This document shows positions 16,886 through 45,192 of a stretch of 64,000 nucleotides of DNA, piece after piece (position 1 is the first letter of the stretch; each line of letters opens with the position of its first letter). The notes below the pieces were generated by a model. It was not told the origin of the DNA and ran no database searches. It saw only the letters and a program-made list of their open reading frames with translations. Source of the DNA: Euryarchaeota archaeon SCGC AAA252-I15 (GTDB lineage: Archaea > Altiarchaeota > Altiarchaeia > IMC4 > SCGC-AAA252-I15); the NCBI GenBank assembly GCA_000402775.1, contig AQSC01000061.1:6496-70495 (forward strand), written 5' to 3'. Made by a program: the position numbers and the translations under genes.

Positions 16886-16961
16886 AGTATAATACCACCA
16901 AAAAGAACAAAAAAGTGAGATAATTAGTGTTATCTGTAATTCCCGAGGGCGCAAAAGAAAA

Positions 16962-17717
16962 TTAACCCCATTTTTTACTATCCTTCAATCTTGTTGTTTC
17001 TTCGTCTTTTTCCGGTTTCCGGAAAACATAGAGGTGTTCGTGCATGATTAGTAGGAAGTTTGATTCTTGGGATTTTTTTTTCCAGAAGCCGGTGGCTTTG
17101 CAGTTCCATTGTTGTTTGATTATGTCTTCTTTGAGTATGAATCCTGCTTTTAGGAAGGCTTGTAGGATTCTAGCTGAAATGGGGACATAGTGTTTATGTC
17201 TCCGGGTGTCGCCGATTAGTATTCCACAATATTTTCCTGATTTTAGGACTCGAATGCTTTCCTGAGCCACGATTTTCATTTCTTCTGCGAATTCGTTTAA
17301 GTCGTGGACTGAGGATAAATCGCCTTTAACTTGTTCTTGTGTGTAAGGGATGATATTCAAATAAGGAGGGTGTGTTGCTATCAAGTCTATTGATTCGTCT
17401 GATATTTTATCGAGATTCCGAGCGTTGCCAACATATGTTTTTTGCCCTGTTTCAGGGAAGTTTTCGTCTATCGAATCAAACCTTAATCGGTCTCGCGTTA
17501 TCATTATTGCATCTGAATTGATATCTACTCCAATCCCGTTTCTTCCTAACAGCTTACATTCGATTAGTGTCGTTCCTCCGCCGACCATCTGATCTAGAAC
17601 CGTATCGCCTTCCGTAGAATAACGTAGAATAAGGTTTCTTGGTATCTCGGGGGCCCAGTTCCCCCTATAATCTCCTCTATGGGTGGCCCAATCCCCTCTT
17701 TTCGGGAAAGACCACAC
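16962..17717 (-). CDS. N6-adenine/N4-cytosine DNA methyltransferase (PF01555-like). Motif I precedes motif IV, so it is a gamma-type order
   Basis: Motif I is VLDQMVGGGTTLIEC (FxGxG). Motif IV is SIDLIATHPPYLN ((D/N/S/H)PPY). C-terminal HEHLYVFRKP is a typical ending for this family. 251 aa. Confidence 0.65.
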   Translation of the reverse strand: MWSFPKRGDWATHRGDYRGNWAPEIPRNLILRYSTEGDTVLDQMVGGGTTLIECKLLGRNGIGVDINSDAIMITRDRLRFDSIDENFPETGQKTYVGNARNLDKISDESIDLIATHPPYLNIIPYTQEQVKGDLSSVHDLNEFAEEMKIVAQESIRVLKSGKYCGILIGDTRRHKHYVPISARILQAFLKAGFILKEDIIKQQWNCKATGFWKKKSQESNFLLIMHEHLYVFRKPEKDEETTRLKDSKKWG

Positions 17718-17776
17718 TGTTGAACACTCTAGTTCGAAATCCTTTTATTTTTGATCTCCTAATCAGAGTTCATATT

Positions 17777-18553
17777 ATGGATTTACACTTGTTCAACGAA
17801 TCTATTTTTAGGCGTTATAAAAGCAATTCCCAAAGGATTAGAAGATTATCAGAGGATTGGTTTGAAGAACAGATGTATTGTCCAGCATGTAAGTGCGATA
17901 ATCTGGAATCCTTTCAGAATAACACACCTGTCGCTGATTTTTACTGCCCAAAGTGCATGAGCCAATTCCAGCTGAAGAGTCAGTCAAATCCTTTTGGAAA
18001 TCGAATTCTTGATGGAGCATATTCAAAAATGATAGAATCTATTCATAAAGGAGATCAACCCCACTTCTTCCTTTTGCACTATACACTCAATGATTGGTCT
18101 GTCTTGAATTTAGAAGTAATACCTAACTACTTTTTTTCAGAATCAATAATCGAGAAGCGTAAACCCTTAGCCCCAACAGCTAGACGGGCCGGTTGGGTAG
18201 GCTGTAACCTTCTCTTATCTAGGATTCCAGAAGACGGGAGGATTCAGACAATAACTGATTCAATAATCCATGAATCCAAAGAGGTGAGAACCAATTGGCT
18301 GAAAGTCTCATTTCTCAAGAATCAGAAATCCCCGAGTAGAGGCTGGATTACTGATATTATGTGGTGCATCAAAGACCTTGATAAAAAAGAATTCACTCTG
18401 GATGAAATTTACTCCTATAAGAACCATTTAGCCAAACTACATCCATTGAACAAGAATATTAAGCCGAAAATCAGACAGCAACTACAATTCTTGAGAGACA
18501 AAAAATACCTCAAATTCCTAGGAAGTGGGGAATACCAGCTAAAAAAAAGATAA
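17777..18553 (+). CDS. Putative restriction endonuclease, DpnI-like (methyl-directed Type IIM): N-terminal PD-(D/E)xK-type domain with a Cys4 element plus a C-terminal winged helix
   Basis: The likely true start is ATG at 17777 (MDLHLFNES...); the track ORF begins at 17639 and overlaps the divergent methyltransferase. Motifs: YKSNSQ, CPACKCDN...PVADFYCPKC, RKPLAPTARRAGWVGCN, C-terminal IRQQLQFLRDKKYL. The arrangement matches what I recall of R.DpnI, but this needs a database or HHpred check. Confidence 0.5.
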   Translation: MDLHLFNESIFRRYKSNSQRIRRLSEDWFEEQMYCPACKCDNLESFQNNTPVADFYCPKCMSQFQLKSQSNPFGNRILDGAYSKMIESIHKGDQPHFFLLHYTLNDWSVLNLEVIPNYFFSESIIEKRKPLAPTARRAGWVGCNLLLSRIPEDGRIQTITDSIIHESKEVRTNWLKVSFLKNQKSPSRGWITDIMWCIKDLDKKEFTLDEIYSYKNHLAKLHPLNKNIKPKIRQQLQFLRDKKYLKFLGSGEYQLKKR

Positions 18554-18585
18554 TAGCTTTTAAATTTAGAATCGATCTGGATCAC

Positions 18586-18786
18586 ATGAAAAGATTTCTT
18601 ATTATTGGCGATAGAGGAAAATATGGTTGGATGATAGATTTTGTAGTCCTGTGGATAGGTCAAGCAAAAAATGAGAAACACGCCTTATACCAGTTTAAAA
18701 AAATCATAAGTAGAGAACCGCATGATGTCTATAAGATAATTGAGATATGCAACGAAACTGAATTTCTATCATATAGCGGTTTCTAG
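18586..18786 (+). CDS. Hypothetical small protein (66 aa) between the nuclease and the Dam-like gene
   Basis: ORF only. It overlaps the 3' end of the convergent Dam-like gene by 18 nt. No motif. Confidence 0.25.
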   Translation: MKRFLIIGDRGKYGWMIDFVVLWIGQAKNEKHALYQFKKIISREPHDVYKIIEICNETEFLSYSGF

Positions 18787-19368
18787 TTTATACGGGTCGA
18801 AGTATACTAAATCATTCTCAGTAACCATCTTTTCGACTCCTTCAAAATCCATTAATTTAATTTCAACTCCTTGAAGTAATTCGCTGGCTTTACGTAATGC
18901 CTTTTCGTTCACGATATTGGGATTTTTGTAACGACCGAATGGTACATTAAACTCTCCCTTCGAGTTTTCTCGATATAATCCATTAAAGCAGGTTTTATTC
19001 AGATACAAAAACATGGCTGATTCCTCAATTCCCCCAGACTTTGAATTGAATCGATCACGTATTGAATAGAAATACTCCTTGGAATGGTTCTTATCATGGA
19101 TCTGAAGGAAGTCGATAATATCGCCAACCGAATCCCTAACATTAATGTAACAGTCAACAAGGGTTTTATTAGAATCGGATAAGACTATCTTTTCCGGAGA
19201 GAACTTCTGTTTAACATAATAAAAGACTGCTCCGCCTCCGATAAATGGTTCAAAATAGCTGTTAAAATCGGGGGGAAAATAATGTTCAAACTGTTTCAAT
19301 AATTGAGATTTTCCGCCCGCCCATTTTACAAAAATAGGAATTTCATATCCGTTCATATGATATATCAT
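18769..19368 (-). pseudogene. Dam-family (D12-class) N6-adenine DNA methyltransferase, C-terminally truncated a few residues after motif IV
   Basis: N-terminal IFVKWAGGKSQLL and FEPFIGGGAVF are Dam motifs X and I. The ORF ends ...LVYFDPYKLETAI*: motif IV is degenerate (DPY instead of DPPY) and the ~100 aa that follow in full-length Dam are missing. No continuation is seen in other frames downstream. Confidence 0.55.
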
Positions 19369-19714
19369 TTGTGGGGAATTCTAATAAAAACCCACAGAGT
19401 CCAATAAAAAAATAAAAATATTGTGGCTCGCAACTCTTCACCCTATCGAGCTTGATTCGACTTTTCGAGTCTTGGTTGTTTAAAAAGTGGCTAAACGGGA
19501 AATCCTTCGGATTTCCCCAAGTTTTCTCCCTACATTCGTAAACTGAGTTTACTCACATATGTTAAATCCTATCGCGGAGAGTATATCTGTTGGTAATGAT
19601 TTATTTTTTGAAAAAGTCATTGTGCTTGCTTCTATGGAATTCTCTGACGTCTTTGGTGTGGTAAGTTTTGGTCAGAAGCATGTAGCTGAAGACGAAATTG
19701 GGTTGTTTGAGTAG

Positions 19715-22347: not shown

Positions 22348-23307
22348 ATGAAAGCATACGTTGTTGGAGGATCAGGTTACACGGGTCGTGAGCTTATAAG
22401 AATCCTCGAATCTCATCCGAAAGTCGAAGAGGTTAAGGTGTCCTCTACGAGATTTTCCGGGAAGAAAGTGTCTGACGTTCATAAAACTCTCACGACAAGC
22501 CTTGTTTTCGAAGAGTTTAATGCATCAAGTGCAAATAGTTGCGACGTTGCTTTCTGTTGTGTGCCGCATACTAAGGCCATGGAGATCGTAAGTGAGCTTG
22601 AAACAAAGGTTATTGATTTGAGCGCCGACTTTAGGTTGAAGGATGTTTCAGTCTATGAAAAGTTTTACGGTGTCAAACACTCGAATCCAAAACTCGTGGA
22701 AAATGCGGTTTACGGTCTTCCAGAGTATTATCGCAAGGAGATTAAGGATGCCAGGATCGTTGCAAATCCGGGGTGTTATCCCACTGCAGTAGTGTTAGCT
22801 GTGAGGCCTTTAATTGAATCCTTTGACGTGCAAAGTGTAATCGCGGATGCGAAAAGCGGGGTTTCAGGGGCGGGAATGGTTAAGGAAGATGAGTATCAAA
22901 AGTTTGTGGGAGATGAGAATTTTAAGGCTTACAAGCTTACAACACACCAGCACGCTCCGGAAATAGATCAGGAGGTGGGTTTTCCTGTTTTTTTCACGCC
23001 GCATCTCGCCCCCTTCGATCAGGGAATTTTCACAACAATACACGCCTTAACACTTGCAAATCCGCAGGAAGTTAAGAGATGCTATGAGGAAAAATACAAG
23101 GATGAACCATTTGTGAAATTAGTAAAAGAGCCTGATGTCGCCTCCGTCAGAAATACGAACATGTGCCAGATTGGGGGGTTTGAATCCGACGGGAAACGGT
23201 GTGTTATCACTTCTGCAATTGACAATCTGGTTAAGGGAGCGAGCGGACAGGCAGTGCAGAACATGAACCTGATGTTTGGATTCAAAGAGACGATTGGTTT
23301 AGTGTAA
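22348..23307 (+). CDS. argC: N-acetyl-gamma-glutamyl-phosphate reductase (ArgC/LysY family)
   Basis: MKAYVVGGSGYTGRELIRIL is the N-terminal NAD(P) Rossmann motif. The catalytic-Cys motif is ANPGCYPTA. 319 aa. Confidence 0.85.
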   Translation: MKAYVVGGSGYTGRELIRILESHPKVEEVKVSSTRFSGKKVSDVHKTLTTSLVFEEFNASSANSCDVAFCCVPHTKAMEIVSELETKVIDLSADFRLKDVSVYEKFYGVKHSNPKLVENAVYGLPEYYRKEIKDARIVANPGCYPTAVVLAVRPLIESFDVQSVIADAKSGVSGAGMVKEDEYQKFVGDENFKAYKLTTHQHAPEIDQEVGFPVFFTPHLAPFDQGIFTTIHALTLANPQEVKRCYEEKYKDEPFVKLVKEPDVASVRNTNMCQIGGFESDGKRCVITSAIDNLVKGASGQAVQNMNLMFGFKETIGLV

Positions 23308-23308
23308 G
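23272..23308 (+). repeat. Direct repeat, copy 1: the native 3' end of argC (ATGTTTGGATTCAAAGAGACGATTGGTTTAGTGTAAG)
   Basis: 37 nt encoding MFGFKETIGLV*. It recurs at 25439..25475 with two substitutions, both synonymous. Confidence 0.85.
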
Positions 23309-23452
23309 ATTAACAAAGGCGAGTAAACGAAGCTACGAGCGTAGCGAGCAGTTTGGGGAAATTTGAAGTTTCCCGTTTAGTCGCTGTTAACTGAACGAAG
23401 CCAAAGGGGTGAGGAAAGTCCCATAAGGGATGTAGAGTTGCGAGCCGCCGCC

Positions 23453-25297
23453 TTAGATTATTAATGATAGGCTGATGAGATTCCAACCTGTAAGTAATTC
23501 ACAGAGGTGGCAGCGGTATACGCAACCTGACATGATATTACTTGAATCATTGTAGTTGAAGACTGTGTTACATGTGTTATTGTCTCCTGTTGTTGCATCG
23601 CCGTCGTATATGTCGTAGTATGCACCCCCTGAGATATTGTTAAAACAAAAGTAGTTATCATACAATGCATTCCCTGTGCTGAGATTGTCAATGTAAGAGC
23701 CCCAAGTATTGTAATCTGCAGTATTGTTGATTAAAGTGTTATTAGTTGATTCTAAAATTATTATACCTGCACTGTTGTTCCTAGCTGTGTTTGATGTCAA
23801 TGTGTTGAAATTACTAGATGATATGAGGATAATCCCTCCCTCATCGTTGTTAGTTACAACATTATTAGATAGAGTATTGTTACTCGACAACTCAAAAAAC
23901 ATGCCATATTCGAAATTCGATACATTACATTTTTTAACCGTTACATTACTCACATTTAGTCCAACAATACCAAAATAAAGCCCTTTTCCTTGTATTTTAT
24001 GTCCACGACAATCTAACGTTATGCTGTCGGTTCCAACGATTAATCCCTCCAACGAATCCTTATCAGAGCAATTAAGGTCGGCATTCAAACTAATGTCGGA
24101 CGTTAAAATCTCACCGCAGGGGACACAGGGATTCACACACCCTGTCGTGTTCGTGTCATTGTATTTGTAGGTTGTGTCACAGGTGTTGTTTTCACCTAGC
24201 GTGTTACCATTTATATAGATGTCATTGTAGATAGTCCGTTGTAGATTATTAAAACAAACGCGATTACCATACAATTTATTTTCCATACTTGAATTATCAA
24301 TGGACAAACCATGACGTAGATTATAGTTGACTGTGTTATTACTAAATGTGTTATTGAAACTATATGGAATAAGTTTTATTCCAAGTCCATTATTGTTAAC
24401 TGTGTTTTCTTCGATTTGAGTATGGCTAGATGATTCGAGATATATTCCCTCATCATCATTATTGCTCACCGTGTTGTTTATTATTAAGGAATTAGTAACT
24501 GTATCGAAGAAAACACCAACATCATTTCCAATAATACTATTATTGAAAAGCTTATTGCCAGTTGACAAGAAAGAAAAAACACCATAATCGCCGTTAATAA
24601 TTGTGTTAGATATTATTGAATTGTAGTCACTTGACGGGCGCATGTATATACCTTCGTCATTATTGGATATAGTGTTATATGAAAGAATATTACCATCCGA
24701 CTCATCAATAACGATGCCATCATCGCTATTATCATTGATAAAGTTGCCAATAATCGAGTTATTGTGTGACCCAACAAGATAAATCGCTTCTGCACTCCCG
24801 TTAATAATAGTATTGTTTAAGATTGTATTGCTTTCACCCAAAAGTATCCCTATGCCTCCATTGTTATTTGTGAGAGTATTAGATGTGACATTGGTTAGAT
24901 TTGATGAAAAAATGAGGATAGTACCCTCACTAAAACTCAGAGTATTATTGTAGAGGAGACAATTATTCGATAAATCTAGGAATATGCCGTAGTCAAAATC
25001 CCGGATTACACAATTCTTTATTGTAACGTTTGAAATATTATGAAGCTGGATGCCAAAGAAGAACGGCTCACCTGAATCATTCAATGACTCATTTCTAGAA
25101 ATCAAATAACCATTACAGTCAAGTGTGATATCGTCAACACCCATTATCAAACCATGGCCACCGCAGTCAAGATTCGAAGATAAGTTAGTGTCCACAAGGA
25201 TTGTGTCTCCACAAGATACAGCATCAGCTACGGAGATAAGAAAAACAAGTAACACAATACACCTAAAGAACCTACTAGTTACGCCCATATTATCCAC
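23453..25297 (-). CDS. Secreted surface protein with two tandem parallel beta-helix (PbH1/NosD-like) domains, very rich in N-glycosylation sequons, with a C-terminal hydrophobic anchor
   Basis: Signal peptide MDNMGVTSRFFRCIVLLVFLISVADA. Two ~290-aa modules with repeated NxxxN/GIxL beta-helix rungs (NTISNNDEGIYM..NTIINGDYGVF..NSIIGNDVGVFF..NTVSNNDDEGIYL). Cys-rich caps (NNTCDTTYKYNDTNTTGCVNPCVPC / NNTCNTVFNYNDSSNIMSGCVYRCHLC). Dozens of N-x-S/T sites. Ends LISLSLII. Confidence 0.7.
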   Translation of the reverse strand: MDNMGVTSRFFRCIVLLVFLISVADAVSCGDTILVDTNLSSNLDCGGHGLIMGVDDITLDCNGYLISRNESLNDSGEPFFFGIQLHNISNVTIKNCVIRDFDYGIFLDLSNNCLLYNNTLSFSEGTILIFSSNLTNVTSNTLTNNNGGIGILLGESNTILNNTIINGSAEAIYLVGSHNNSIIGNFINDNSDDGIVIDESDGNILSYNTISNNDEGIYMRPSSDYNSIISNTIINGDYGVFSFLSTGNKLFNNSIIGNDVGVFFDTVTNSLIINNTVSNNDDEGIYLESSSHTQIEENTVNNNGLGIKLIPYSFNNTFSNNTVNYNLRHGLSIDNSSMENKLYGNRVCFNNLQRTIYNDIYINGNTLGENNTCDTTYKYNDTNTTGCVNPCVPCGEILTSDISLNADLNCSDKDSLEGLIVGTDSITLDCRGHKIQGKGLYFGIVGLNVSNVTVKKCNVSNFEYGMFFELSSNNTLSNNVVTNNDEGGIILISSSNFNTLTSNTARNNSAGIIILESTNNTLINNTADYNTWGSYIDNLSTGNALYDNYFCFNNISGGAYYDIYDGDATTGDNNTCNTVFNYNDSSNIMSGCVYRCHLCELLTGWNLISLSLII

Positions 25298-25438
25298 TAG
25301 AATTGAGGAATTTAATACTTACAAAAAAACATTTATTGTTCAGCGGTGAGTTAACATTTCAGTGAACACATAATATTCGTTAGAGTCATCGAGACTTAAA
25401 GTCGAGGATGGCTCATTTGTCGTCGGCAAACTCCGACA

Positions 25439-25475
25439 ATGTTTGGGTTCAAGGAGACGATTGGTTTAGTGTAAG
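25439..25475 (+). repeat. Direct repeat, copy 2: a displaced remnant of the argC 3' end (ATGTTTGGGTTCAAGGAGACGATTGGTTTAGTGTAAG)
   Basis: 35/37 identity with 23272..23308. Both differences are third-position and synonymous (GGA>GGG, AAA>AAG). The sequence upstream of the remnant has no argC similarity. Confidence 0.85.
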
Positions 25476-26800
25476 TGTTTTTTCTGGGTCTTCCAGCTTC
25501 CCCTTCTGAACCAGGCGACTGCAACAATAAATGCGATTAGGGATGAAAATAGTATTCCGTACCATATTCCTTGGATGCCCATGGTTCTTGAAAAAATGTA
25601 TGCTAGTGGGATATTGAATATTATCACCCTGATTATTGTTAGGGCGAGCGATGGTAGGGCGTGGCCGGAGCCTAAGAAAGCCCCTGAGATTACAATGCTT
25701 ACGCCTATGAAGAAATATGAGAGGGGTACAATCCTTAGAAAGCTGGATCCGTATGAGACGACTAGGGGATCATTGTTGAATAGCATGATAATCTGTTTTG
25801 AAAAGATTATGAAGAATAATCCGAGTATTGCCATGCAAGCAGTGGCAAGAAGCCCTGCCTTATAAGTCATTTCTTCAGCCCGCTTAAATTGCCCGGCACC
25901 CACGTTTTGACCGACTAGCGATACTACCGAGATTGAGACTCCAAGTGCTGGGAGGATTGCAAGACTATCCAGGCGGAAGCCGATCCCAAAGGCTGCGAGA
26001 GCTTCAGTCCCGAAACCGGCAACAATTATTGTTAAAAGAAACATGCCAATACTCATTGAAAGGTTCGAAATAGATGATGGTACTCCAACACTGAATATAC
26101 CCTTCACGTATTCGAGGTTGAAGGAAAACTTGTGAAGCTTTATCTTAAGCCAAGTCTTATCCATGAAAAAGTAGGCGAATATTATTAGCATCCCAAAAGC
26201 CCTAGCAGCAATAGTCGCAATAGCCGCCCCCTTAACACCCCAACCCAAAGTGAAAATGCAGATGGGATCCAAGATGATATTTAAGATGGCTGCAGCCCCC
26301 ATACCGTACATTGGAAACTTCATCTCGCCTTCACCACGGATTATGCTGTTTCCGACCATAGCCAGAAAAAAGATGGGGGAACCGAGAAGAATGATGTGGA
26401 TGTAGTCAAGTGCCAGATCATTTACGACTTCTGTCACACCCATCAAAGAGAAAAGAAAACCTGTGGAGGCAATACCACCGACCATGAAAAAAATTGAGAG
26501 GACAAATGCGAGAACAAGAGCGTGTTCCGCGACCTCACCTGCCTTGACGTAGTTTTTCGCCCCGAAACATCGGGCGATTAAGGAGGTTGAGCCGACACCC
26601 AAACCCGTTGCAAGAGAGATTATGAGAAATACTACTGGAAAACTCACACTTACCGCGGCAAGTGCGTCTGCGCTTATTTTCCCGACAAAGTATGCGTCAA
26701 CAATGTTGAAGGCGCTCTGCAATGCGAAGGCGACGACCATAGGCCATGACGTCGACAAAATAGTCAGTAAAACAGACCCTTCAGTTAGATCCTTAGCCAT
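25466..26800 (-). CDS. MATE-family efflux transporter
   Basis: 444 aa, 12 predicted TM helices with a two-fold internal repeat. The N-terminus MAKDLTEGSVLLTILSTSWPMVVAFALQSAFNIVDAYFVGKI is typical of the MATE (NorM/DinF) start. Confidence 0.75.
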   Translation of the reverse strand: MAKDLTEGSVLLTILSTSWPMVVAFALQSAFNIVDAYFVGKISADALAAVSVSFPVVFLIISLATGLGVGSTSLIARCFGAKNYVKAGEVAEHALVLAFVLSIFFMVGGIASTGFLFSLMGVTEVVNDLALDYIHIILLGSPIFFLAMVGNSIIRGEGEMKFPMYGMGAAAILNIILDPICIFTLGWGVKGAAIATIAARAFGMLIIFAYFFMDKTWLKIKLHKFSFNLEYVKGIFSVGVPSSISNLSMSIGMFLLTIIVAGFGTEALAAFGIGFRLDSLAILPALGVSISVVSLVGQNVGAGQFKRAEEMTYKAGLLATACMAILGLFFIIFSKQIIMLFNNDPLVVSYGSSFLRIVPLSYFFIGVSIVISGAFLGSGHALPSLALTIIRVIIFNIPLAYIFSRTMGIQGIWYGILFSSLIAFIVAVAWFRRGSWKTQKKHLH

Positions 26801-26830: not shown

Positions 26831-29800
26831 TCAGTCGTTCCTCTTAGCTTCAAGTTTCAGAAGTTTCCCGTGCAAATCCCGAAGAAGGGGTACCCCAATG
26901 TCCTCATCGATTTTCCCAGACTTGATTTTACGCTTCAAAAGCTTAATCTGCTCGGAAACCTCCCTTATCTCGTATTCAAGACCTGAAGCAACCTGTCTTT
27001 TAGTCTGCTCTTTAGGGACTTGTTTTCCGATAACATCCCAAAGCTCGGTATAAAGGTCTTTTTCACCGCTTTGTTCAAGTTGTTTTTCAGCAAGCCTATA
27101 CCAGGCGGGAAGAGTTGAAGATCGTGTATTTATAACTTCCATAAAATCCGAGAAATCCACTTTCCGTTCGGGCTTGCCCGAAAGCGCCTCAGCCCAAGGC
27201 CGCTCTAAAGCCAAATCCACGCAAGTTTTAACGTCCGCTGAAGAAAAACCCTCCATGAATCCAGACAATTTCTTGAAATCCAATCCAGTTTCAACCTGCT
27301 TGCCCTGAGTGTGTAAACTAAGAATCTCGGACCTCGTTTCAGCATCAGGGGCTGAAACAAAAACCTGTTCCGTAAACCTTCCAGCACGTCTAAGCGCAGG
27401 ATCAACAGCCCACGGAGCATTCGTGGACGCCAAAACCATGACACCATCACGGTCTTTGAATCCGTCTAATTCAGTTAGAAACTGGTTTACAAGAGTCCTA
27501 GATTTACCGGCAGCCTCTCGTCTCGGTGCTATCGCATCAATCTCATCAAAGAATATTATTGAGGGAGTGTTTCGGACAGCACGCTCAAAAATCGCGTTAA
27601 GCCTTCGCTCGCTTTCACCCACTTCTTCAGAGAGAATGTCAGTGATTTTCACGTTGAAAAAAGTTGCATTACATTCTCCGGCAGTAGCCCGCGCAAGATA
27701 TGTTTTACCGCAACCGGGGGGGCCGTAAAAGAGGATTCCGCCTCCCACATCGCGAGAGTACTTCGCGGAAAGTTTTGGTTTGGTTAAAGGGTAAACTATG
27801 GTTCTTTTGATTTTTTCCTTGGTTGAAGACAAGTCCGCAACATCCTTAAACTTTAATTTGGGCTTGATTGCAGCCTCAATACCGCCAGCATACTTCATGA
27901 TGTCTTCCAACATGTTTGAGAAAACCTCAGCCTCACCACTCTCATTAATCTGGGTTAAAGCAAGCTTAAACCAGGGTGGAAGAGAACTATTCCGCTCTTC
28001 TATTGCGGAAATAAAATCTTTTTGATTTGCCTTTCGAGCCGTCGTGCCGGAAAGAGCCTCAGCCCAAGGCTTGTCAATCGCGTCATCGCATACAGCTTTA
28101 ATGTCAGCGCTAGAGTATCCTTCAGTCAATTTTGAAAGTTGCTTGAAGTCGACGTTAGAGGATATTGGACGGTCCCGAGTATGGATTTCGAAAATCTTTT
28201 CTCGAACATCCTTCCCGGGAGGTGGAACATATATCTGGTCGGTTAAACGTCCAGCCCGCCTTAAGGCAGGATCAACATCCCAAGGAGTGTTAGTAGAAGC
28301 CAAGACCATGACACCTTCACGGTCTTTGAAGCCGTCAAGTTCTGATAAAAACTGGTTTACCAAAGTCCGGGATATTCCGGCAGACTCCCTTCTGGGAGCC
28401 AGGGCATCAATCTCGTCGAAAAATACGATTGCCGGAGTGTTTTGGTAAGCGCGTTCGAAAACATACTTAAGGTTTTTTTCAGGGTCTCCAATCTCGCTTG
28501 AAAGAATGTCGGTGACTTTGATGTTGAAGAAGGTTGCATCACATTCGCCGGCAGTAGCCCTTGCAATGTAGGTTTTCCCGCAACCAGGAGGACCGTAGAG
28601 TATGGCACCTCCACCAACCTTTTTCTTGTATTTCCTGGCAATCTCCGGTTTAACGAGAGGATTGATGATTGAGTTGGTGACCTTATCCTTGACATCCTCC
28701 ATATTCGCAACATCAATAAACCTGAGTTTGGGCTTAACCTCCTGGTCAACACCGCCCGCATGCCTTAAAATTTGACGCGACAAATCAGCAAACAACTCGA
28801 CTTCCCCGCTTTTCCTGATCTGCTTTTCAGCCTGCTTGTACCAGGCAGTCAAAGAACTAGGCCTTACACCCAAAACAATCAAGAAATCATTCATAGTCGC
28901 CTTACGCGCGGGAGCGCCCTTTAAAGCCTCCGCCCAAGGAATCTCAAGAGCATCATCACAAACAGCCTTGATATCGGCACTGGAATAACCTTCAGTAAGC
29001 TCTCCAAGCTTTTCAAGATCTACTTTAGATGAGACGGGCCGCTTTTTCGTGTTTAATTTGAAAATCTCGAGACGAGTCAAGTAATTTGGGGGGGGGATGA
29101 AAATCAGATCTGCAAATCTCCCAGGCCTTCTAAGGGCGGGATCAAGATCCCATGGAACGTTAGTGGAACCAAGAATTAGAACATTCTCGGAGTAATTTTC
29201 AACGCCATCCATCTCCATTAAAAACTGGTTCACTATAACCCTTGAACTAGATCCTGCACTGTCACGCCGCTCAGCCAACGCATCAATCTCGTCGAAAAAC
29301 AGGATGCAGGGAGCACTCTTGCTCGCTGTCGAAAAAACCTCGTGAATGTTTTTTGCTCCGGCCTCATCACCCCCTGAAATTATGTCTGAAGTGTTTATGT
29401 TAAAGAAATTTAGTCCGCATTCACCCACAGTAGCCCGTGCGATATAGGTTTTACCGCAGCCGGGAGGACCGTAAAAGAGAATCCTTCCCCCGCCCTTCTT
29501 CTCATATTTCTTAGAGACTTCAACGTGTTGGAGGGGGTAGATTATTGCTTCCCTGATCTTCTCCTTAACCTCCTTTAAATCCGCAACGTGAGAGAAGTTT
29601 ATTGTGGAGGCCTCAATCGGAACCGAACCCCCAGCACCCATCTCAGTTGAAAATGAGATGGGTTCAAGCTTCACTTCAGAGGGAAACCCAGTCTTAAGTC
29701 TCTTGTAGCCTTTCGGACAGGCGAGATATTTTATTTCCGTTGCAGGACCCTCACCGCCCTTATGCTCAATTATTGCATAGGGTAAGTACACAAGTCCCTT

Positions 29801-30463
29801 AAGTATTACTTTTCCACCGAAAAATTGGCCTAACACCTCAGCAACCCTGTCGTGGTTGAATTGAATCGGATCTTTTATGTAATCATCATCTCCCATATCG
29901 GATGTGTGCAAAGCAGCGCCTATATCATACCTTAGGTTTGAAAAAACGGGTAGGTGAAAACCCAACCGTACATAATACCGGTGCATTATTATGTCGTCTT
30001 CAAGGTAGTATCTTAAGAAATTGAACATTTGACTTGACTCCCTCTCATAAGTTTCGATAAAACCTTCATTTTTAAGTTCAGCGACCACTTCACGATCAAG
30101 TTGGTCGTAGGGAATGCTCCCATACTCGTATAATTGGCCTAATGTGGTGATTATCACGTCCTTGTAGTCGATTATTTGCCGTACTAATCCGTCTTTAACA
30201 AGCTTGGGATCCTTGAATATGCTCCCTCTTTTAGTGTAATATAGGTCACAATGTGATAAGTCGACGTAAAAATTGTTTTCTCTCCGGTCAAAAGAAGTTG
30301 TCTTGAAAAAAACCCCTTTTTTTACTTCCTCAGTCCTCAATACCTTAAAAACTCCTAAGGGTGCATAACGTTTTGTTACGGACCCTTGAGCGGATTTCAA
30401 TATTTTTTCTTCAATGTCTTCAGGTATTGTGAAGGCTTGAGTTTGAACTTTTGTAATCTTCAT
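26831..30463 (-). CDS. Giant AAA+ ATPase (1210 aa): a Cdc48-like N-terminal region followed by three tandem Vps4/meiotic-clade-like AAA modules, each with its own C-terminal helical subdomain
   Basis: Three Walker A sites (ILFYGPPGCGKTYIARATVGEC / AILYGPPGCGKTYIARATAGEC / ILFYGPPGCGKTYLARATAGEC). Three Walker B sites (FFDEIDA). Three copies of STN(V/T/A)PW.(L/V)DPALRR(P/A)GR. Three copies of TEGYSSADIKAVCDDA..PWAEAL. The modules are about 75-80% identical at nucleotide level between units 2 and 3. Confidence 0.75.
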   Translation of the reverse strand: MKITKVQTQAFTIPEDIEEKILKSAQGSVTKRYAPLGVFKVLRTEEVKKGVFFKTTSFDRRENNFYVDLSHCDLYYTKRGSIFKDPKLVKDGLVRQIIDYKDVIITTLGQLYEYGSIPYDQLDREVVAELKNEGFIETYERESSQMFNFLRYYLEDDIIMHRYYVRLGFHLPVFSNLRYDIGAALHTSDMGDDDYIKDPIQFNHDRVAEVLGQFFGGKVILKGLVYLPYAIIEHKGGEGPATEIKYLACPKGYKRLKTGFPSEVKLEPISFSTEMGAGGSVPIEASTINFSHVADLKEVKEKIREAIIYPLQHVEVSKKYEKKGGGRILFYGPPGCGKTYIARATVGECGLNFFNINTSDIISGGDEAGAKNIHEVFSTASKSAPCILFFDEIDALAERRDSAGSSSRVIVNQFLMEMDGVENYSENVLILGSTNVPWDLDPALRRPGRFADLIFIPPPNYLTRLEIFKLNTKKRPVSSKVDLEKLGELTEGYSSADIKAVCDDALEIPWAEALKGAPARKATMNDFLIVLGVRPSSLTAWYKQAEKQIRKSGEVELFADLSRQILRHAGGVDQEVKPKLRFIDVANMEDVKDKVTNSIINPLVKPEIARKYKKKVGGGAILYGPPGCGKTYIARATAGECDATFFNIKVTDILSSEIGDPEKNLKYVFERAYQNTPAIVFFDEIDALAPRRESAGISRTLVNQFLSELDGFKDREGVMVLASTNTPWDVDPALRRAGRLTDQIYVPPPGKDVREKIFEIHTRDRPISSNVDFKQLSKLTEGYSSADIKAVCDDAIDKPWAEALSGTTARKANQKDFISAIEERNSSLPPWFKLALTQINESGEAEVFSNMLEDIMKYAGGIEAAIKPKLKFKDVADLSSTKEKIKRTIVYPLTKPKLSAKYSRDVGGGILFYGPPGCGKTYLARATAGECNATFFNVKITDILSEEVGESERRLNAIFERAVRNTPSIIFFDEIDAIAPRREAAGKSRTLVNQFLTELDGFKDRDGVMVLASTNAPWAVDPALRRAGRFTEQVFVSAPDAETRSEILSLHTQGKQVETGLDFKKLSGFMEGFSSADVKTCVDLALERPWAEALSGKPERKVDFSDFMEVINTRSSTLPAWYRLAEKQLEQSGEKDLYTELWDVIGKQVPKEQTKRQVASGLEYEIREVSEQIKLLKRKIKSGKIDEDIGVPLLRDLHGKLLKLEAKRND

Positions 30464-35331: not shown

Positions 35332-35458
35332 AAAAAATACGCCCCACACCACCAAAAAGAGCATAAAGCTTAATAAAATACAGGATAATTGTTGTTATAC
35401 GAAATCGTGCTACGCAGTGGCTCAAACCAAACTTTTATAAATTTATAAGAGATACAAT

Positions 35459-35788
35459 ATGAATATGAAAATACCAATCAAAAATTTTCTCAAAATAACA
35501 AAGAAAAAGGTAGTTATAACTATCATATTTCCTATTATAGCTATTTTAATCCTTTTTTCTTTTTTTGTATTTGATGAAATTCTTGGGTTAGGTGGCAATA
35601 TAATTGTCAATACAATTTGTGCATTTGAAGAATATCTTTACAATTTTATATTATTGCCACTAAATTTTGTTGATAGTGATTTCACCCCACCAATTATTTT
35701 TAAAATAGTTATTGTACTAATACCTATTTGGTGGTATTTTCTATCATGTGTATCAATATTTATAAAAGAAAAAAGATGGAAAAGATAA
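35459..35788 (+). CDS. Small AT-rich membrane protein (109 aa), part of an inserted cassette
   Basis: Coding region with a strongly lower GC fraction than its neighbours. Two or three TM helices. Preceded by an AT-rich spacer. Confidence 0.35.
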   Translation: MNMKIPIKNFLKITKKKVVITIIFPIIAILILFSFFVFDEILGLGGNIIVNTICAFEEYLYNFILLPLNFVDSDFTPPIIFKIVIVLIPIWWYFLSCVSIFIKEKRWKR

Positions 35789-36031
35789 TCACGCCACTGC
35801 TCCGCCCGACTCTGTGCTCCATTTCATTCCGCTTGAGGACGCTGCGCTTTCGCTTCACTGCGTTACGCTCACCCTCGTATAACAAAGGATAAAAGGAAAA
35901 TTGCTCGGCTCGCAATTTTCCCAAATTTTTCTTCCACTTCGTTCCAGAAAAACTTCTTTTATCCCTGATGTTAACTGTAATTACGGGGGGGGTTTTGATT
36001 TATATGGATATGTTATATATACTTATATAAG

Positions 36032-36298
36032 ATGGAAAATGTCACTGTTATGCATAGTCCAACGCTTGAATCGGTGTTGATGGTAGAGAAAGCAATCCAA
36101 AAATATAGTGCCGAAAAGGGAAAGTATCAACTTTGGAAGAAGTTACCGCGTAAAATGATGTATCAAACTTACCAAACAATATTAGACTACTTGGCTGAAT
36201 CAGGCAAGATAATAATCGACAAAGACGGTATCGTAATCTGGACATACAATCCGGAGCGGATAAAGAGGCTGATATCTGAGGATTTACTAGTAAGATGA
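36032..36298 (+). CDS. Putative antitoxin of a type II TA pair (88 aa)
   Basis: Immediately upstream of, and overlapping by 4 nt (ATGA), the RelE/ParE-like toxin gene. A TATA-like element (TTATATATACTTATATAAG) lies ~10-25 nt upstream. Confidence 0.45.
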   Translation: MENVTVMHSPTLESVLMVEKAIQKYSAEKGKYQLWKKLPRKMMYQTYQTILDYLAESGKIIIDKDGIVIWTYNPERIKRLISEDLLVR

Positions 36299-36630
36299 AC
36301 AAAGAAAGACGCGTCGGATTCATAACAAAAAAATTAAGGGTAGAATTCGACTCACTTAACAAGGGAAAAAGTAGTGATAAACAACTTTATGAATTCATCA
36401 ACAGGGCAATCGACGACTTGAAGGAAAAACCAACGTGCGGAATAAAAATTCCCAAGAAACTATGGCCTAAAACATACATAAAGAAATACGACATCACTAA
36501 CCTCTGGAAATATGATCTCCCTACTGGTTGGAGATTAATATACACTATTGAAACCGACGAGATAATGATTGTTGCAATAATCTTAGAATGGTTTGACCAC
36601 AAAAACTACAAAAAAAGATTCAACTACTGA
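36295..36630 (+). CDS. relE: RelE/ParE-superfamily toxin
   Basis: The C-terminal motif NLWKYDLPTGWRLIYTIETDEIMIVAIILEWFDHKNY matches the RelE/ParE consensus (LW.YRIGDYRIIY.I.D....V.IL.IGHRKDVY). 111 aa, basic. Confidence 0.6.
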   Translation: MNKERRVGFITKKLRVEFDSLNKGKSSDKQLYEFINRAIDDLKEKPTCGIKIPKKLWPKTYIKKYDITNLWKYDLPTGWRLIYTIETDEIMIVAIILEWFDHKNYKKRFNY

Positions 36631-36695
36631 ACGCCCCCCGCAACTCTGCGCTTCGCTTGCCTCAGCCCTACGGGCCTCGGACGGCTAACAGCGAT

Positions 36696-37910
36696 TTACG
36701 TGTAGTCGGTTAGTCTTTTTTGTTTTAGGATTTCGCTTTTTTCCGTGTATTTTTTCAAGGGTATTCGAAGGCGGGTGGCTGCGTCCTTTAATGCTTCGCT
36801 GAGTGTTTGGAATTTCTTTGGTTTGGACTTCATCGCCCACCTCACGTTTTCCCTGACTTCCCAGACGCCTACAGGCACGACATAGCCCTCGTAAATTTCC
36901 CGGAAAACAATTGCACGAGCCTGCCTTCGCATCCGATCCATTGCCTCGCACACCCCGAATCGGCCGGCATAGTAGCCTCCACCCTCATTTAACGCATAAT
37001 CCCACCTCCCTTCATGTTTCTCGTGCTCGTAAGCTATTTGAGGTTCAGTCGCACCTGACGTCCAAAATGTTTGTGGCGCCCACGCCTCGAATTGCTCAAA
37101 CTCCCAAGCGCCTGGAATAAGCAGTATTTCAAAGTGGTTTTCAAGGTAAGTGTTTGAAAAAAGTTGGAACTCGTTGATTGAAGGGTAATCTCTGATACGC
37201 TTCATCAAATGTTTTCCAAGAATATCATCCACTGCAGTAATGCTCCACCTAGTTGGAACGAGTTTTTTCTTGTCTTGTATTCCGAGGCTTCCTGAAGATA
37301 AGACCCGAGTTAGGTAGTAGACGTTAAAGTCTTTCTCAAATAAAGTCGATAGTGCATACGATGAAGTTACCTCGTCAGAAGCAATATAATCGACTTTTTG
37401 GGGAATTGTAGGGTTGGATGAAACATCAAAACTTAAAAGGTCGGCTGAAGGGCCCATGGGTTGTGAAACAGGGGAGAATGACATGGAAAATGAAGGTTTT
37501 TTCTTAAAATGCGTTTCAACATCAACAGGTTTTACAGACATTGCAATCTGCTGGTTCTCGGAAATAAACCTATTTTTCAATTTCACATTAACCCTGCTTT
37601 TCGACCGAATAAGAGAGGATCTAATGCGAATGATATCTTCAAAACCGAGACTCTGCCAGGAAGAGGGATCATCAGAGATATACACGTCATCTCCGTGCAT
37701 GGAAGTGAGCGGTCCAACAGATACATCCGGCCAGCCGCCCCATCCCACGAAAATTGAGGGGCTTGGTCCAAACATATGACTTGAAAGTTTTAATTCAGAT
37801 GGTTTTTGATATTCAACTTTCTTTAAAATCGGGCAGTAGTGTAAACCGCATAAAAGCCTTCCGCCCTTGCAAGTTAAACACATCTGTCCAGTTAAAGGCT
37901 TCAAATTCAA
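36696..37910 (-). CDS. nreA: NreA-like archaeal DNA repair protein (Nre family)
   Basis: N-terminal C4 motif CLTCKGGRLLCGLHYCP (the CxxCKGxxxLCGxxxCP pattern I recall for Nre proteins). 404 aa. Confidence 0.5.
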   Translation of the reverse strand: MNLKPLTGQMCLTCKGGRLLCGLHYCPILKKVEYQKPSELKLSSHMFGPSPSIFVGWGGWPDVSVGPLTSMHGDDVYISDDPSSWQSLGFEDIIRIRSSLIRSKSRVNVKLKNRFISENQQIAMSVKPVDVETHFKKKPSFSMSFSPVSQPMGPSADLLSFDVSSNPTIPQKVDYIASDEVTSSYALSTLFEKDFNVYYLTRVLSSGSLGIQDKKKLVPTRWSITAVDDILGKHLMKRIRDYPSINEFQLFSNTYLENHFEILLIPGAWEFEQFEAWAPQTFWTSGATEPQIAYEHEKHEGRWDYALNEGGGYYAGRFGVCEAMDRMRRQARAIVFREIYEGYVVPVGVWEVRENVRWAMKSKPKKFQTLSEALKDAATRLRIPLKKYTEKSEILKQKRLTDYT

Positions 37911-40018: not shown

Positions 40019-40636
40019 TTAAAATACGTTTAGATTCGAAGATAGGATTACGCCGTCAGAATCCTTGAAAAGTCCTTCAACAACACCTTCCTGCCTGAAA
40101 TTATAATTTTTCAGGTGCCCTATTGTAGCTTTCTGTTTATTAGGTAGAACAGTCCAAATTTTATTTCGACCAGTCTCCTTTGCAAGAGTAGATACTGTTT
40201 CTACAAACTCACCTATTTTTTGAGGATCATCCCCGTGAACGACAGGCCCGTGCATGTAAATGCCATCTTCCTTGTCGAAAAGAGTTCCTACAAAACCCTT
40301 ACTAGATTCACCCCCCTTAAGGCAAAAAAGGCCTCCGATTAATGCTAATGCTTTGATGAAAAAGATTGATGATGGGGGGGAGAAGGCTGATTCATCCAAT
40401 TCCATGATTCGTCCAAGATCATTTTGACTGGCGAACTTTACATTAGAGTTTTCGTTAATCGAGGGTGAGTCCTCGTGTTTAGTAATATTTCTAGTTTTTG
40501 GATTTGGTTTTACAAAACCAAGGTGATTATCTGAATTACTCTTGCCACGCAAAAGTGTATTAGCCACAAAGCCTCGAGAAAAAGCATCAGATAAACCATC
40601 CGAATCATCCACAGAAACAGTGAATTCAGAATCCAT
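40019..40636 (-). CDS. GNAT-family N-acetyltransferase with a low-complexity N-terminus (205 aa)
   Basis: IMELDESAFSPPSSIFFIKALALIGG is a GNAT beta1-alpha1 start, followed by beta-strands and ...GVVEGLFKD...VILSS. The start codon lies 12 nt downstream of the 13-nt poly-G run on this strand. Confidence 0.5.
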   Translation of the reverse strand: MDSEFTVSVDDSDGLSDAFSRGFVANTLLRGKSNSDNHLGFVKPNPKTRNITKHEDSPSINENSNVKFASQNDLGRIMELDESAFSPPSSIFFIKALALIGGLFCLKGGESSKGFVGTLFDKEDGIYMHGPVVHGDDPQKIGEFVETVSTLAKETGRNKIWTVLPNKQKATIGHLKNYNFRQEGVVEGLFKDSDGVILSSNLNVF

Positions 40637-43002: not shown

Positions 43003-44199
43003 ATGATCGAATTGTTGGTTTTAGTTTTAATAGGTTGCATACTTGGCGTGTTGACGGGGATTACGCCGGGTATTCACGTCAACATGGTGTGTCTTTTAGG
43101 TTTTATTTTGTATAATGGTTTGGGTTTGACCTCGACTCAGTTTGCGGTTGCTATGATTTCAATGGCTGTGACGCACACTTTCCTGGATTTTATTCCTGCC
43201 ATATTTATCGGAGTGCCGGAAGAACAGACTGCCCTTTCGGTTTTGCCGGCCCACAGGATGGTTTTAGAGGGGAACGCTTATGAAGCGGTTAAAATCACTG
43301 GTTACGGTAGTATAATCGGGTTGTTTTTCGCAACCGCGTCCATTCCCGCAGCATTATATTTTGTGCCGAAAATATATTTTCTATTAAGAGGGGTGATTGT
43401 GTATGTACTCATAATTGCCGTTGCATACCTTATCTTTAGAGAAAAAACATGGAAGAAAAGATTGTGGGCGGTGACAATCTTTACTCTCGCTGGATGGTTG
43501 GGTTTTGTGGCATTCAACCAAAAAATAATTTCTGAAAACCTAATCCTCTTTCCCCTTTTCACCGGACTCTTCGGATTAAGCACTATTATTTACTCACTTC
43601 GACAGGAAAACACGTTCATACCTCAAAAGGAATACGCAATAGTTGACGTTGACAAAAATTTTGTAACTTCCGGGTTCTTAGGGGCGTTAGGAGGAATGTT
43701 GGTCGGAATTCTCCCGGCAATGAGCCCCTCCCAGGTTGGAATAATACTTACTAGATTTTACAAGGAGAGTACCAGGAACTTTTTGGTTGCGGTTTCGGCA
43801 ATAAACACTTCAGATGCCATATATTCTTTCATAGCTCTTTACACGATTCGAAATCCTAGAAGCGGAGTTGCCACAATATTGGGCAAGATAATTGATTTGG
43901 ATTACAATACACTGCTTTTATTTCTAGGTGTAATAATGTTTACTGCACCCATTGCCCTTGCATTGCATCTTAAAATCGGGAGAATCGCATTGAAATTCTC
44001 CCGAAAAATAAATTTCAGAAACCTAAATATCGCAGCCTTTGCAATCGTTGTATTCCTAGTATACTACTTGACTGGTTTTTGGGGTTTTTTATTCGCAATA
44101 ACGGCCACTGCATTAGGATTGTTGCCTATTCAAACCGGAGTTAGCAGAACACACTCGATGGGAGTATTAATTCTTCCAACAATAATATACTTTTTATAG
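43003..44199 (+). CDS. TctA-family (DUF112) tripartite tricarboxylate transporter-like membrane protein
   Basis: The N-terminal GCILGVLTGITPGIHVNM fits the TctA G-x-x-P-G signature. About 10 TM helices. 398 aa. Confidence 0.55.
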   Translation: MIELLVLVLIGCILGVLTGITPGIHVNMVCLLGFILYNGLGLTSTQFAVAMISMAVTHTFLDFIPAIFIGVPEEQTALSVLPAHRMVLEGNAYEAVKITGYGSIIGLFFATASIPAALYFVPKIYFLLRGVIVYVLIIAVAYLIFREKTWKKRLWAVTIFTLAGWLGFVAFNQKIISENLILFPLFTGLFGLSTIIYSLRQENTFIPQKEYAIVDVDKNFVTSGFLGALGGMLVGILPAMSPSQVGIILTRFYKESTRNFLVAVSAINTSDAIYSFIALYTIRNPRSGVATILGKIIDLDYNTLLLFLGVIMFTAPIALALHLKIGRIALKFSRKINFRNLNIAAFAIVVFLVYYLTGFWGFLFAITATALGLLPIQTGVSRTHSMGVLILPTIIYFL

Positions 44200-44227: not shown

Positions 44228-44824
44228 ATGAAATCAATAGAGGTTATTATTTCAAGTTTCAAGGTCCTTTTTGATAACATAGTGGCATTTTTCCTTGCTT
44301 TTCTTATCTGGATTTTCCTCGGATTTTTTATTATTCCAATACCACCCCTATTATTCGGCTTGTATTACATGGCGAATAAGGCAATTAAAGGAGATAAACC
44401 AAGTTGGAAAGATGTGTTTAAAGGATTTGATTATCTCGTAATATCATGGGCTCTTGTAATATTAGGTTTTATAATATGTGGTATTTTAATTGGAATTTTT
44501 CTTACTATTGCATATTCAGATATTGGAGGATTTTTTATTATCCTAATATCCTTTCTCGTCACTATAATTATCGTTGGTATTATGGGTTATGTATCCAATT
44601 ATGCAATACCTGTAATAATCGAGAAAAACGTTGGATTATTCCCGGCGATAAAGGAAAGCATATCACTATTTAGGAGGAAATTCATCACCACAATAACAGT
44701 AAGTGTACTTATAATAATAATTCAATTTGCCCTAGTTATGACTGTTATAGGGATCGTAGTAGCTTATGTTATTCCAGTCGTTATTCCAGCCATTGTATTT
44801 ACAAAACTAGCAATAGAAGAGTAA
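44228..44824 (+). CDS. Small polytopic membrane protein (198 aa), paralog of 31031..31555. It sits between a host gene 3' end and that end's duplicated remnant
   Basis: PPLLFGLYYMANKAIKGDKPSWKDVFKGFDYL plus 4 TM helices. It shares this loop and the overall topology with the 31031 protein. Confidence 0.55.
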   Translation: MKSIEVIISSFKVLFDNIVAFFLAFLIWIFLGFFIIPIPPLLFGLYYMANKAIKGDKPSWKDVFKGFDYLVISWALVILGFIICGILIGIFLTIAYSDIGGFFIILISFLVTIIIVGIMGYVSNYAIPVIIEKNVGLFPAIKESISLFRRKFITTITVSVLIIIIQFALVMTVIGIVVAYVIPVVIPAIVFTKLAIEE

Positions 44825-44918
44825 TAATTCCGTCTTCATTAATATTGTGCCATACTCTCCTCTACGGATAGGAAAAACTTCGTTTACCTGCTTTTTGTTA
44901 GTTGAATTATTCTTAAAT

Positions 44919-45002
44919 ATGTTAAGGCGTTCTGATTCAGGTCTACCTCTCTCCATGGGAGTTTTAATTCTTCCCACGATAATATACTTTCTAGGATTAT
45001 GA
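44919..45002 (+). repeat. Remnant of a TctA-family 3' end. It is a 28-codon ORF ending ...SMGVLILPTIIYFLGL* and duplicates the last 13 codons of gene 43003..44199
   Basis: 44955..44990 versus 44158..44193: 32/36 identical. All four differences are synonymous third-position changes (GTA/GTT, CCA/CCC, ACA/ACG, TTA/CTA). Confidence 0.8.
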
Positions 45003-45192
45003 AAAGCCGAACGAAAGTCTTTATTGGGATATTGATTTTATTGACTGCGAAACAATTAGACACCGTTGTAGGGCCGGTATTGGAGAGTCTGATCTTGATT
45101 ATCCTGATTGTTTATGGGATTTCGATTTTAAGAGGTAGCTTCGACGTTAAGAGAATTAAATAGGTTATATTTCATAAACAACAAGGTATATC

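Follow-up and report, generated by a model that had tools for sequence, protein, structure and literature searches.

Organization of the argC-MATE junction

The DNA analyzed here, referred to below as the window, is a 64,000 nucleotide (nt) stretch of contig AQSC01000061.1 (positions 6,496 to 70,495) from the Altiarchaeota archaeon SCGC AAA252-I15, and it contains a 2.1-kb insertion flanked by two copies of the 3′-end of a protein-coding gene. The gene is argC, encoding N-acetyl-gamma-glutamyl-phosphate reductase (22348..23307, + strand; Pfam domains Semialdhyde_dh and Semialdhyde_dhC_1), with closest named homologs in Candidatus Altiarchaeota. On the far side of the insertion is a gene for a MATE efflux transporter (25466..26800, - strand; Pfam MatE, 1.4e-67), the ancestral convergent neighbour of argC. 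The insertion is bracketed by a 37-nt direct repeat with two mismatches. Copy 1 (23272..23308, + strand; ATGTTTGGATTCAAAGAGACGATTGGTTTAGTGTAAG) constitutes the last 11 codons, the stop codon and one further nucleotide of the functional argC gene, and copy 2 (25439..25475, + strand; ATGTTTGGGTTCAAGGAGACGATTGGTTTAGTGTAAG) is an orphan argC end; the two are positioned as attL-like and attR-like sites, respectively. The differences, GGA/GGG and AAA/AAG with GGA and AAA present in copy 1, are both at third codon positions and both synonymous, and MFGFKETIGLV* is encoded by either copy, exactly as stated in a preliminary description made from the sequence alone. Searching the window with up to three mismatches allowed returned only these two matches, with 0.00 expected based on 100 shuffles, and there are no further copies of the 37-mer elsewhere in the window. 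The stop codon of the MATE gene (25466-25468) falls within the orphan copy.

The insert carries a gene for a PbH1 beta-helix protein, and the same argC-PbH1-MATE arrangement is present in all five of the same-species contigs examined, with 99.8-99.9% identity and with the same two differences between the repeat copies. These five contigs, out of 17 with the same argC protein, are independent and come from ENA, JGI and Logan assemblies, and the arrangement is therefore not an assembly artefact. Most of the single-nucleotide polymorphisms (SNPs) that distinguish the window from the other same-species contigs are clustered elsewhere, in the 5′-third (29111-29951) of a gene that encodes a 1210 amino acid (aa) protein with three AAA domains (26831-30463) and that is composed of three ~870-nt internal repeats (27162-29491).

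Loci from relatives and from other genomes that were compared with the window were labelled L086 to L093 and L126 to L131. In L090 and L091, in which argC is 62% identical, argC and the MATE gene are convergent and overlap by 9 nt with nothing in between, documenting the empty site that the preliminary description had anticipated, with argC directly adjoining MATE. In the window, this 9-nt overlap is retained between the orphan copy and the MATE gene (25466-25474). Both repeat copies are therefore placed as in the ancestor, the orphan with respect to MATE and copy 1 with respect to argC. The nearest relatives, the source species itself aside, have argC genes that are only 62-68% identical, and scanning the genome collection with argC identified distant argC genes only (≤51% identity) and no close relatives. 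Downstream of argC there is a HEAT-repeat gene followed by MATE in L089, without repeats flanking the HEAT-gene insertion, a gene encoding a 150-aa protein in L127 and L128, and no MATE gene in L126. From the empty site in L090 and L091 and the different content in other relatives, it follows that the 2.1 kb was inserted, and that the junction itself is variable from one lineage to another.

Some of these loci have additional features. In three independent assemblies of a relative with a 67% identical argC (L086 to L088), the contigs end ~130 nt past argC at an identical break point, inside the apparent start of a gene that encodes a signal peptide, which suggests that a repeated or strain-variable gene is present at the argC junction. 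In L089 (GCA_043822165.1, 5067-6402), the MATE gene beside the HEAT-repeat insertion is called as two open reading frames (ORFs), of 285 and 177 aa, pointing to a frameshift, to a pseudogene or to an error in the assembly.

The PbH1 cassette

The argC insert is tripartite: a conserved leader of ~90 nt is followed by the gene for the PbH1/NosD beta-helix protein and then by a structured element of ~140 nt, which is also conserved. The earlier statement that the 2.1 kb holds only the PbH1 gene is thus correct in that there is one gene, but it overlooked the conserved leader and the conserved structured 3′-element. The gene (23453..25288, - strand) encodes a secreted, double right-handed beta-helix protein of 611 aa (Pfam Beta_helix, 1.7e-58; NosD, 1.6e-51) with a signal-peptide-like N-terminus and two homologous beta-helix modules, an internal duplication. 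The protein, two SNPs away from the recorded allele, has 31 N-X-S/T sequons versus 18 expected from its composition. The structured element occupies the 144 nt between the argC and PbH1 stop codons (23309..23452, + strand), beginning 1 nt past the argC stop and antisense to the PbH1 gene, and homologous copies were identified by nhmmer and with a covariance model, both in the window and in other genomes. The conserved leader (25289..25379, - strand) is the 5′-leader and promoter region of the cassette and is 82-91% identical to the regions upstream of PbH1 homologs at two other loci, L092 and L093. The remaining 59 nt (25380..25438, no strand assigned) form a spacer that is unique to the argC insertion; it does not align to L092 or L093, and a 7-bp hairpin within it adjoins the orphan copy. 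The GC content at third codon positions (GC3) of the PbH1 gene is 0.36, below the 0.46 of argC and the 0.49 of MATE, a comparison for which the preliminary description had suggested that the insert be set against its flanks.

The PbH1 homologs in the two other genomes are 45 and 40% identical to the window protein (BLASTP) and are encoded at different loci. In both, the structured element is located directly 3′ of the PbH1 homolog, and over aligned positions the leader and element are 82-91% identical whereas the PbH1 proteins are 46-56% identical. In GCA_043822165.1 (L092), the leader-PbH1-element unit is located between a DnaJ gene and a CTP_transf_like gene; in the window species this junction is empty, with the two genes overlapping by 4 nt. 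The third locus of the unit (L093) follows a NUDIX gene and an orphan fragment encoding the C-terminus of an H+-pyrophosphatase, and 3′ of the PbH1 unit there is a HicA toxin-antitoxin pair and then a second, partial copy of the element. The H+-pyrophosphatase fragment (L093 1423-1551), with 42 intact codons immediately ahead of the PbH1 leader, is a candidate for a third orphan gene end, in which case the partner copy would lie past the contig end. The same contig has a tRNA-Val gene (227-301, - strand), the 5′ 35 nt of which are repeated with 89% identity 105 nt away (372-406), so that this region (227-406) looks like a tRNA-associated integration scar. No tRNA genes were found across the 64-kb window.

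A second gene-end duplication at the TctA gene

Every window ORF of 90 codons or more was scanned for a repeat of its C-terminal 12-mer, and a genuine second copy was found only for argC and for a gene encoding a TctA-family permease (43003..44199, + strand; Pfam TctA). Two further 12-mer matches were discarded, as the ORFs concerned are spurious and run antisense to the AAA gene with the internal repeats. The duplication at TctA is a 43-nt direct repeat that comprises the last 14 codons and has five mismatches, all of which are synonymous, and both copies encode SMGVLILPTIIYFL. Copy 1 (44154..44196, + strand), one of the direct-repeat family members in the window, is the functional TctA end, has TCG, GTA, CCA, ACA and TTA as its differing codons and is followed by a new TAG stop codon. 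Copy 2 (44951..44993, + strand) is an orphan within a 27-codon mini-ORF (44919-45002) that ends ...YFLGL*, and the stop codon of this mini-ORF overlaps the ATG of a 54-aa ORF (44999-45163).

Between the two copies there is again a single gene, encoding a 198-aa membrane protein (44228..44824, + strand), with a GC3 of 0.26 versus 0.42 for TctA. This gene is absent at the TctA to radical-SAM junction of L130 and L131, in which TctA is directly before the radical-SAM gene, providing an empty site. A degenerate remnant of the structured element is located between the 198-aa gene and the orphan (44825..44907, - strand). It retains the 5′ motif ACAAAAAGCAGGTAAACGAAGTTT, matching the 24-mer consensus of the element with three mismatches (0.00 expected by chance), and the covariance model gives a weak match that extends over 44784-44907 on the - strand (21.4 bits, E 0.019 with filters off).

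The TctA copies also indicate which end is ancestral. Most TctA relatives are 399-403 aa in length and six of the seven sequences read end in ...YFLG[FLI] or a close variant (...YFMGI, ...YFLGIG). The window TctA has 398 aa, lacks the last two ancestral residues and ends in ...YFL*, whereas the orphan continues to ...YFLGL*. The orphan has retained the ancestral terminus while the gene is two residues short, and the TctA orphan is therefore the original host end, with the gene-attached end having probably arrived with the insert. The proposal, originally made for argC, that incoming DNA supplies a gene end and displaces that of the host is thus supported at TctA, where the ancestral C-terminus is carried by the orphan.

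Other genes have been gained nearby. Two GNAT-domain genes between NrdD and TctA (40510-42928) and two ORFs of 54 and 176 aa between TctA and the radical-SAM gene (44999-45723) are all absent from L129 and L130, and both of these junctions have therefore also acquired genes.

The ~140-nt structured element

Copies of the element were sought in about 294 kb of Altiarchaeota DNA, window included. The 5′-half is predicted to fold into a three-way junction that is followed by further hairpins. Covariation supports two helices, P1 and P3, and the outer helix together with the GGGGAAAU/AUUUCCC hairpin has 89% paired cells across six copies. There are eight two-sided pair changes in these two helices, compared with 2.7 in shuffled alignments, none of 500 of which reached this number, and one to three in slid controls. 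Between cassettes at different targets, the element is ~87% identical. No match was found in the window at the gathering thresholds of Rfam 15, with a permissive search returning only a chance-level CRISPR-DR17 match (E 9.6), and a metagenome scan for the hairpin pattern identified 27 loci, all of which are chance matches.

The six strong copies, and the remnant at the TctA site, are all within DNA that is absent from relatives. Restriction-modification genes, two toxin-antitoxin pairs and the surface protein are encoded next to these copies. In the two cassettes that are flanked by repeats, the end of the element with the sequence TTAACA faces the repeat in both cases. A search for guide-like complementarity between either element and either target gave nothing genuine longer than 7 nt; a single 10-nt complementarity proved to be a product of overlapping test coordinates.

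Two further copies in the window were located with the covariance model, the first also with nhmmer, and both are in islets without flanking repeats. One (19425..19572, - strand) is located at one end of a DpnI/Dam restriction-modification islet (16886-19714) that is absent in L089, L127 and L128; in L089 and L127, the flanking Aminotran_4 and AA_kinase genes are only 2 and 33 nt apart. In the window these genes are convergent and the islet between them, which has a low GC3, encodes an N6_N4 methyltransferase, a DpnI-like endonuclease, a 66-aa ORF and a Dam-type methyltransferase, with the element copy at the AA_kinase edge. A 51-aa ORF beside the AA_kinase gene was ruled out as a remnant of any neighbouring gene. 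The second copy (35800..35985, - strand; 89.6 bits) is diverged, with compensatory changes in P1 and P3, and has a 109-aa ORF on one side and a YoeB/ParE-like toxin-antitoxin pair on the other. These features constitute an islet (35332-36695) between SpoIIM and Nre, in which the 109-aa ORF has a GC3 of only 0.16. The toxin-antitoxin islet is absent from L129, in which SpoIIM and Nre overlap by 8 nt. Abutting the Nre stop codon there is, tentatively, a 3′-half of a further element (36631-36700), with a score of 42 versus a background of 38.

Proposed mechanism and alternatives

The footprint of integration at a gene 3′-end, as originally suggested for argC, is supported by the empty site in L090 and L091 and by the second case at TctA. 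We consider it probable that cassettes enter by a Campbell-type event at the 3′-end of a gene, which receives a new end from the cassette, and that the argC locus is the scar of one such insertion. A cassette consisting of leader, PbH1 gene and element would have entered the 9-nt argC/MATE overlap in an Altiarchaeota archaeon. The incoming DNA would most likely have been circular, or otherwise mobilised, and we infer that a ~37-nt version of the argC 3′-end was part of it; in the circular model, the junction of the cassette circle would read ...CTCCGACA, the repeat and then ATTAACAAAGG... A crossover of the Campbell type, either site-specific or dependent on short homology, between the chromosomal argC end and the cassette-borne copy would then generate a hybrid argC end (copy 1) joined to the body of the gene. 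The original host end (copy 2) would stay as the orphan, still providing the MATE gene with its stop codon and downstream region. The recombining enzyme would act in trans. The ~140-nt element adjoins the repeat in both repeat-flanked cassettes and is the best candidate for a cis-acting site in this reaction.

The differences between the repeat copies are consistent with such an import. The preliminary description had argued from the synonymous-only divergence that the two argC ends evolved under selection in different lineages. For repeat 1 alone, this argument is weak, as two of two synonymous differences have a probability of about 0.10-0.15 under duplication and drift, but it becomes significant when repeat 2 is included, with seven of seven differences synonymous (P about 1-2e-3; with drift confined to the orphans, P about 5e-5). 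Six of the seven differences have A/T in the copy attached to the gene and G/C in the orphan, in keeping with the low GC3 of the genes carried by the cassettes. Synonymous-only and polarised differences of this kind fit better with a cassette-borne, imported gene end than with a duplication in situ.

Several results weigh against gene-end replacement by mobilised cassettes. As the preliminary description noted of the integrase, no integrase, transposase, Cas1 or other recombinase domain was found in any ORF examined of the 64-kb window. Repeats 1 and 2 do not share a common core sequence and a single sequence-specific integrase therefore does not explain both sites, and the longest perfectly matching blocks, 22 nt in repeat 1 and 12 nt in repeat 2, are short for general homologous recombination. 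Flanking repeats were not found at the PbH1 cassettes of L092 and L093, nor at the restriction-modification and toxin-antitoxin islets. Neither an empty site nor a free cassette was seen within the species, with the insert carried by all five of the contigs examined, and IMG/VR yielded at most chance matches to the element, the leader or a degenerate argC-end pattern. The A/T versus G/C polarity, at just six of seven sites, has a one-sided P of about 0.06.

Rather than arriving with the insert, the second argC end could have been made in place. A non-homologous insertion, with staggered breaks or repair synthesis, would have copied 37 nt, with survival limited to products in which the argC/MATE overlap was duplicated, and the copies would then have drifted. 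Where two needed genes overlap by 9 nt, both can indeed stay intact only if an insertion duplicates at least these 9 nt, a recombinase was not found among the window ORFs examined and, as noted, the two differences in repeat 1 are not unusual when taken alone. The combined result for the two repeats argues against such a duplication, as does the direction of change; the orphans look ancestral, with G/C-ending codons and the ...GL* end, and it is the gene-attached copies that have changed, the reverse of orphan drift. In addition, duplications of 37 and 43 nt far exceed those known for transposons and casposons, and no inverted repeats were found at the cassette ends. We regard duplication in situ as distinctly improbable. 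Synonymous-only, compositionally polarised differences would also be explained, with no need for a dedicated recombinase, if a repeat-flanked cassette was born once in a related lineage and was then moved by a double crossover in the flanking genes, with one crossover in or next to the repeat. The copies would then be alleles of two lineages, the mechanism of insertion would be a separate matter, and the lineage-dependent content downstream of argC and at other junctions is in agreement. This would, however, require the same coincidence at two unlinked loci and leave the shared element beside the repeat in both cassettes unexplained. It does not account for the origin of the repeats and there is no donor lineage at hand, the nearest argC being only 68% identical. 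Import by homologous recombination seems unlikely.

A further alternative concerns the element, which could be an ordinary non-coding RNA gene, or a terminator or insulator of PbH1 and a few other genes, with no part in insertion and only incidentally located beside the repeats. As would be the case for a functional RNA, the element is better conserved than the adjacent protein and exhibits covariation; it is always intergenic and often closely follows the stop of a same-strand gene. Counts of five G-U cells versus three A-C cells did not separate the two strands of the element. Set against this, all six strong copies and the remnant are in insertions that relatives lack, beside cargo of the type carried by mobile DNA, the TTAACA end is directed toward the repeat in both repeat-flanked cassettes, and there is no matching Rfam family. 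We view an ordinary RNA or terminator role as possible but doubtful.

Altiarchaeota are uncultured, deeply branching archaea with compact genomes full of overlapping genes and, to our knowledge, few mobile elements have been described for them. If gene-end replacement has occurred as outlined, the argC and TctA loci illustrate a route by which new genes, including one for a variable glycosylated surface protein, could be acquired with overlapping neighbours spared by a spare gene end. As a tentative extension, about which we have more doubt than confidence, the loci described may belong to a family of trans-mobilised miniature gene cassettes in Altiarchaeota that has not been described before. 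Such cassettes would be marked by the ~140-nt structured cis element and, by virtue of replacement ends for their target genes, would enter housekeeping genes at 3′-ends or overlaps, integron-like but with no fixed platform, the target being specified by the cassette. The cargo so far would be the surface protein, the small membrane protein, restriction-modification genes and toxin-antitoxin pairs. If the element is a recombination site, it would serve as a marker with which accessory genes and horizontal transfer could be searched for in the phylum, and would suggest a recombinase able to act on targets that the cassette specifies. Any Altiarchaeota assembly can be searched with the covariance model.

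Comparison with known systems

Casposons and other archaeal elements insert at gene 3′-ends, for example at that of aEF-2, with target-site duplications. The insertions described here resemble casposons in their archaeal host, in their position at the 3′-end of a protein-coding gene and in the flanking duplication, but casposons have Cas1, terminal inverted repeats and ~14-15-bp duplications, none of which is present here. Transposon or casposon insertion does not fit, given the lack of terminal inverted repeats, the lack of a transposase or Cas1 domain in the window ORFs examined and the 37- and 43-nt lengths of the duplications. RNA-guided recombination, as directed by the bridge RNA of IS110 or the omega RNA of IS200/IS605, does not fit either, given the lack of target complementarity longer than 7 nt, the lack of a recombinase gene among the window ORFs examined and the ~87% identity of the element across different targets. 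Some integrase-less elements, cis-mobilisable or Xer-using, are mobilised in trans and consist of short, att-flanked DNA, with the enzyme encoded elsewhere. The cassettes are likewise short, flanked DNAs without a recombinase of their own, but rather than one fixed att or dif site they have two unrelated repeats, each of which copies the end of its own target gene.

Recombination between attC and attI is not known to duplicate target sequence. Integron cassettes, and the integrase-less attC clusters known as CALINs, have been reported in nine archaeal phyla, with Altiarchaeota included there only as a tree root (PMC9668308). The Altiarchaeota insertions share with integron cassettes the single-gene units, a structured element resembling a recombination site at one end, toxin-antitoxin cargo and the lack of an adjacent recombinase, and two units are in tandem both in L093 and in the toxin-antitoxin islet of the window. 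They differ in that the element is conserved in sequence and is predicted to form a three-way junction and hairpins, rather than the single hairpin with R′′ and R′ boxes of attC, and in that insertion duplicated 37-43 nt of the target gene. The 57-141-nt hairpin with R′′ (RYYYAAC) and R′ (GTTRRRY) that defines attC was not found, with a GTTRRRY-like end present in only one of the six copies in an alignment read by eye, and there is no IntI-like protein among the window ORFs, no attI and no long array, with at most two units in tandem. Based on the structure of the element, the lack of IntI and the target duplication, an integron was ruled out.

The closest parallel is with prophages e14 and 21 in the icd gene of Escherichia coli. 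Their insertion is likewise within the 3′-end of a protein-coding gene, the direct repeat consists of the gene end, and the element-side copy completes the gene with the host copy orphaned, there as icdC. Analyzed by the same method in the K-12 record, the repeat of e14, shared by the icd 3′-end and the icdC pseudogene, is 165 nt long with 12 differences, and nine of the 11 differing codons are synonymous; imperfect and mostly synonymous repeats are thus common to both systems, with seven of seven differences synonymous here. They differ in scale and equipment. The e14 prophage is 15 kb in length and encodes intE and xisE, whereas the inserts in the window are of 0.75 and 2.1 kb with one ORF each, lack their own integrase and excisionase, with no recombinase domain in the window ORFs examined, have 37-43-nt repeats at two different target genes and share a structured, non-coding element. 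With direct repeats of gene ends, empty sites in relatives and alleles that have been under coding selection with the host end as the orphan, the argC insertion is, by analogy, of the e14/phage 21-icd type in its logic and its footprint.

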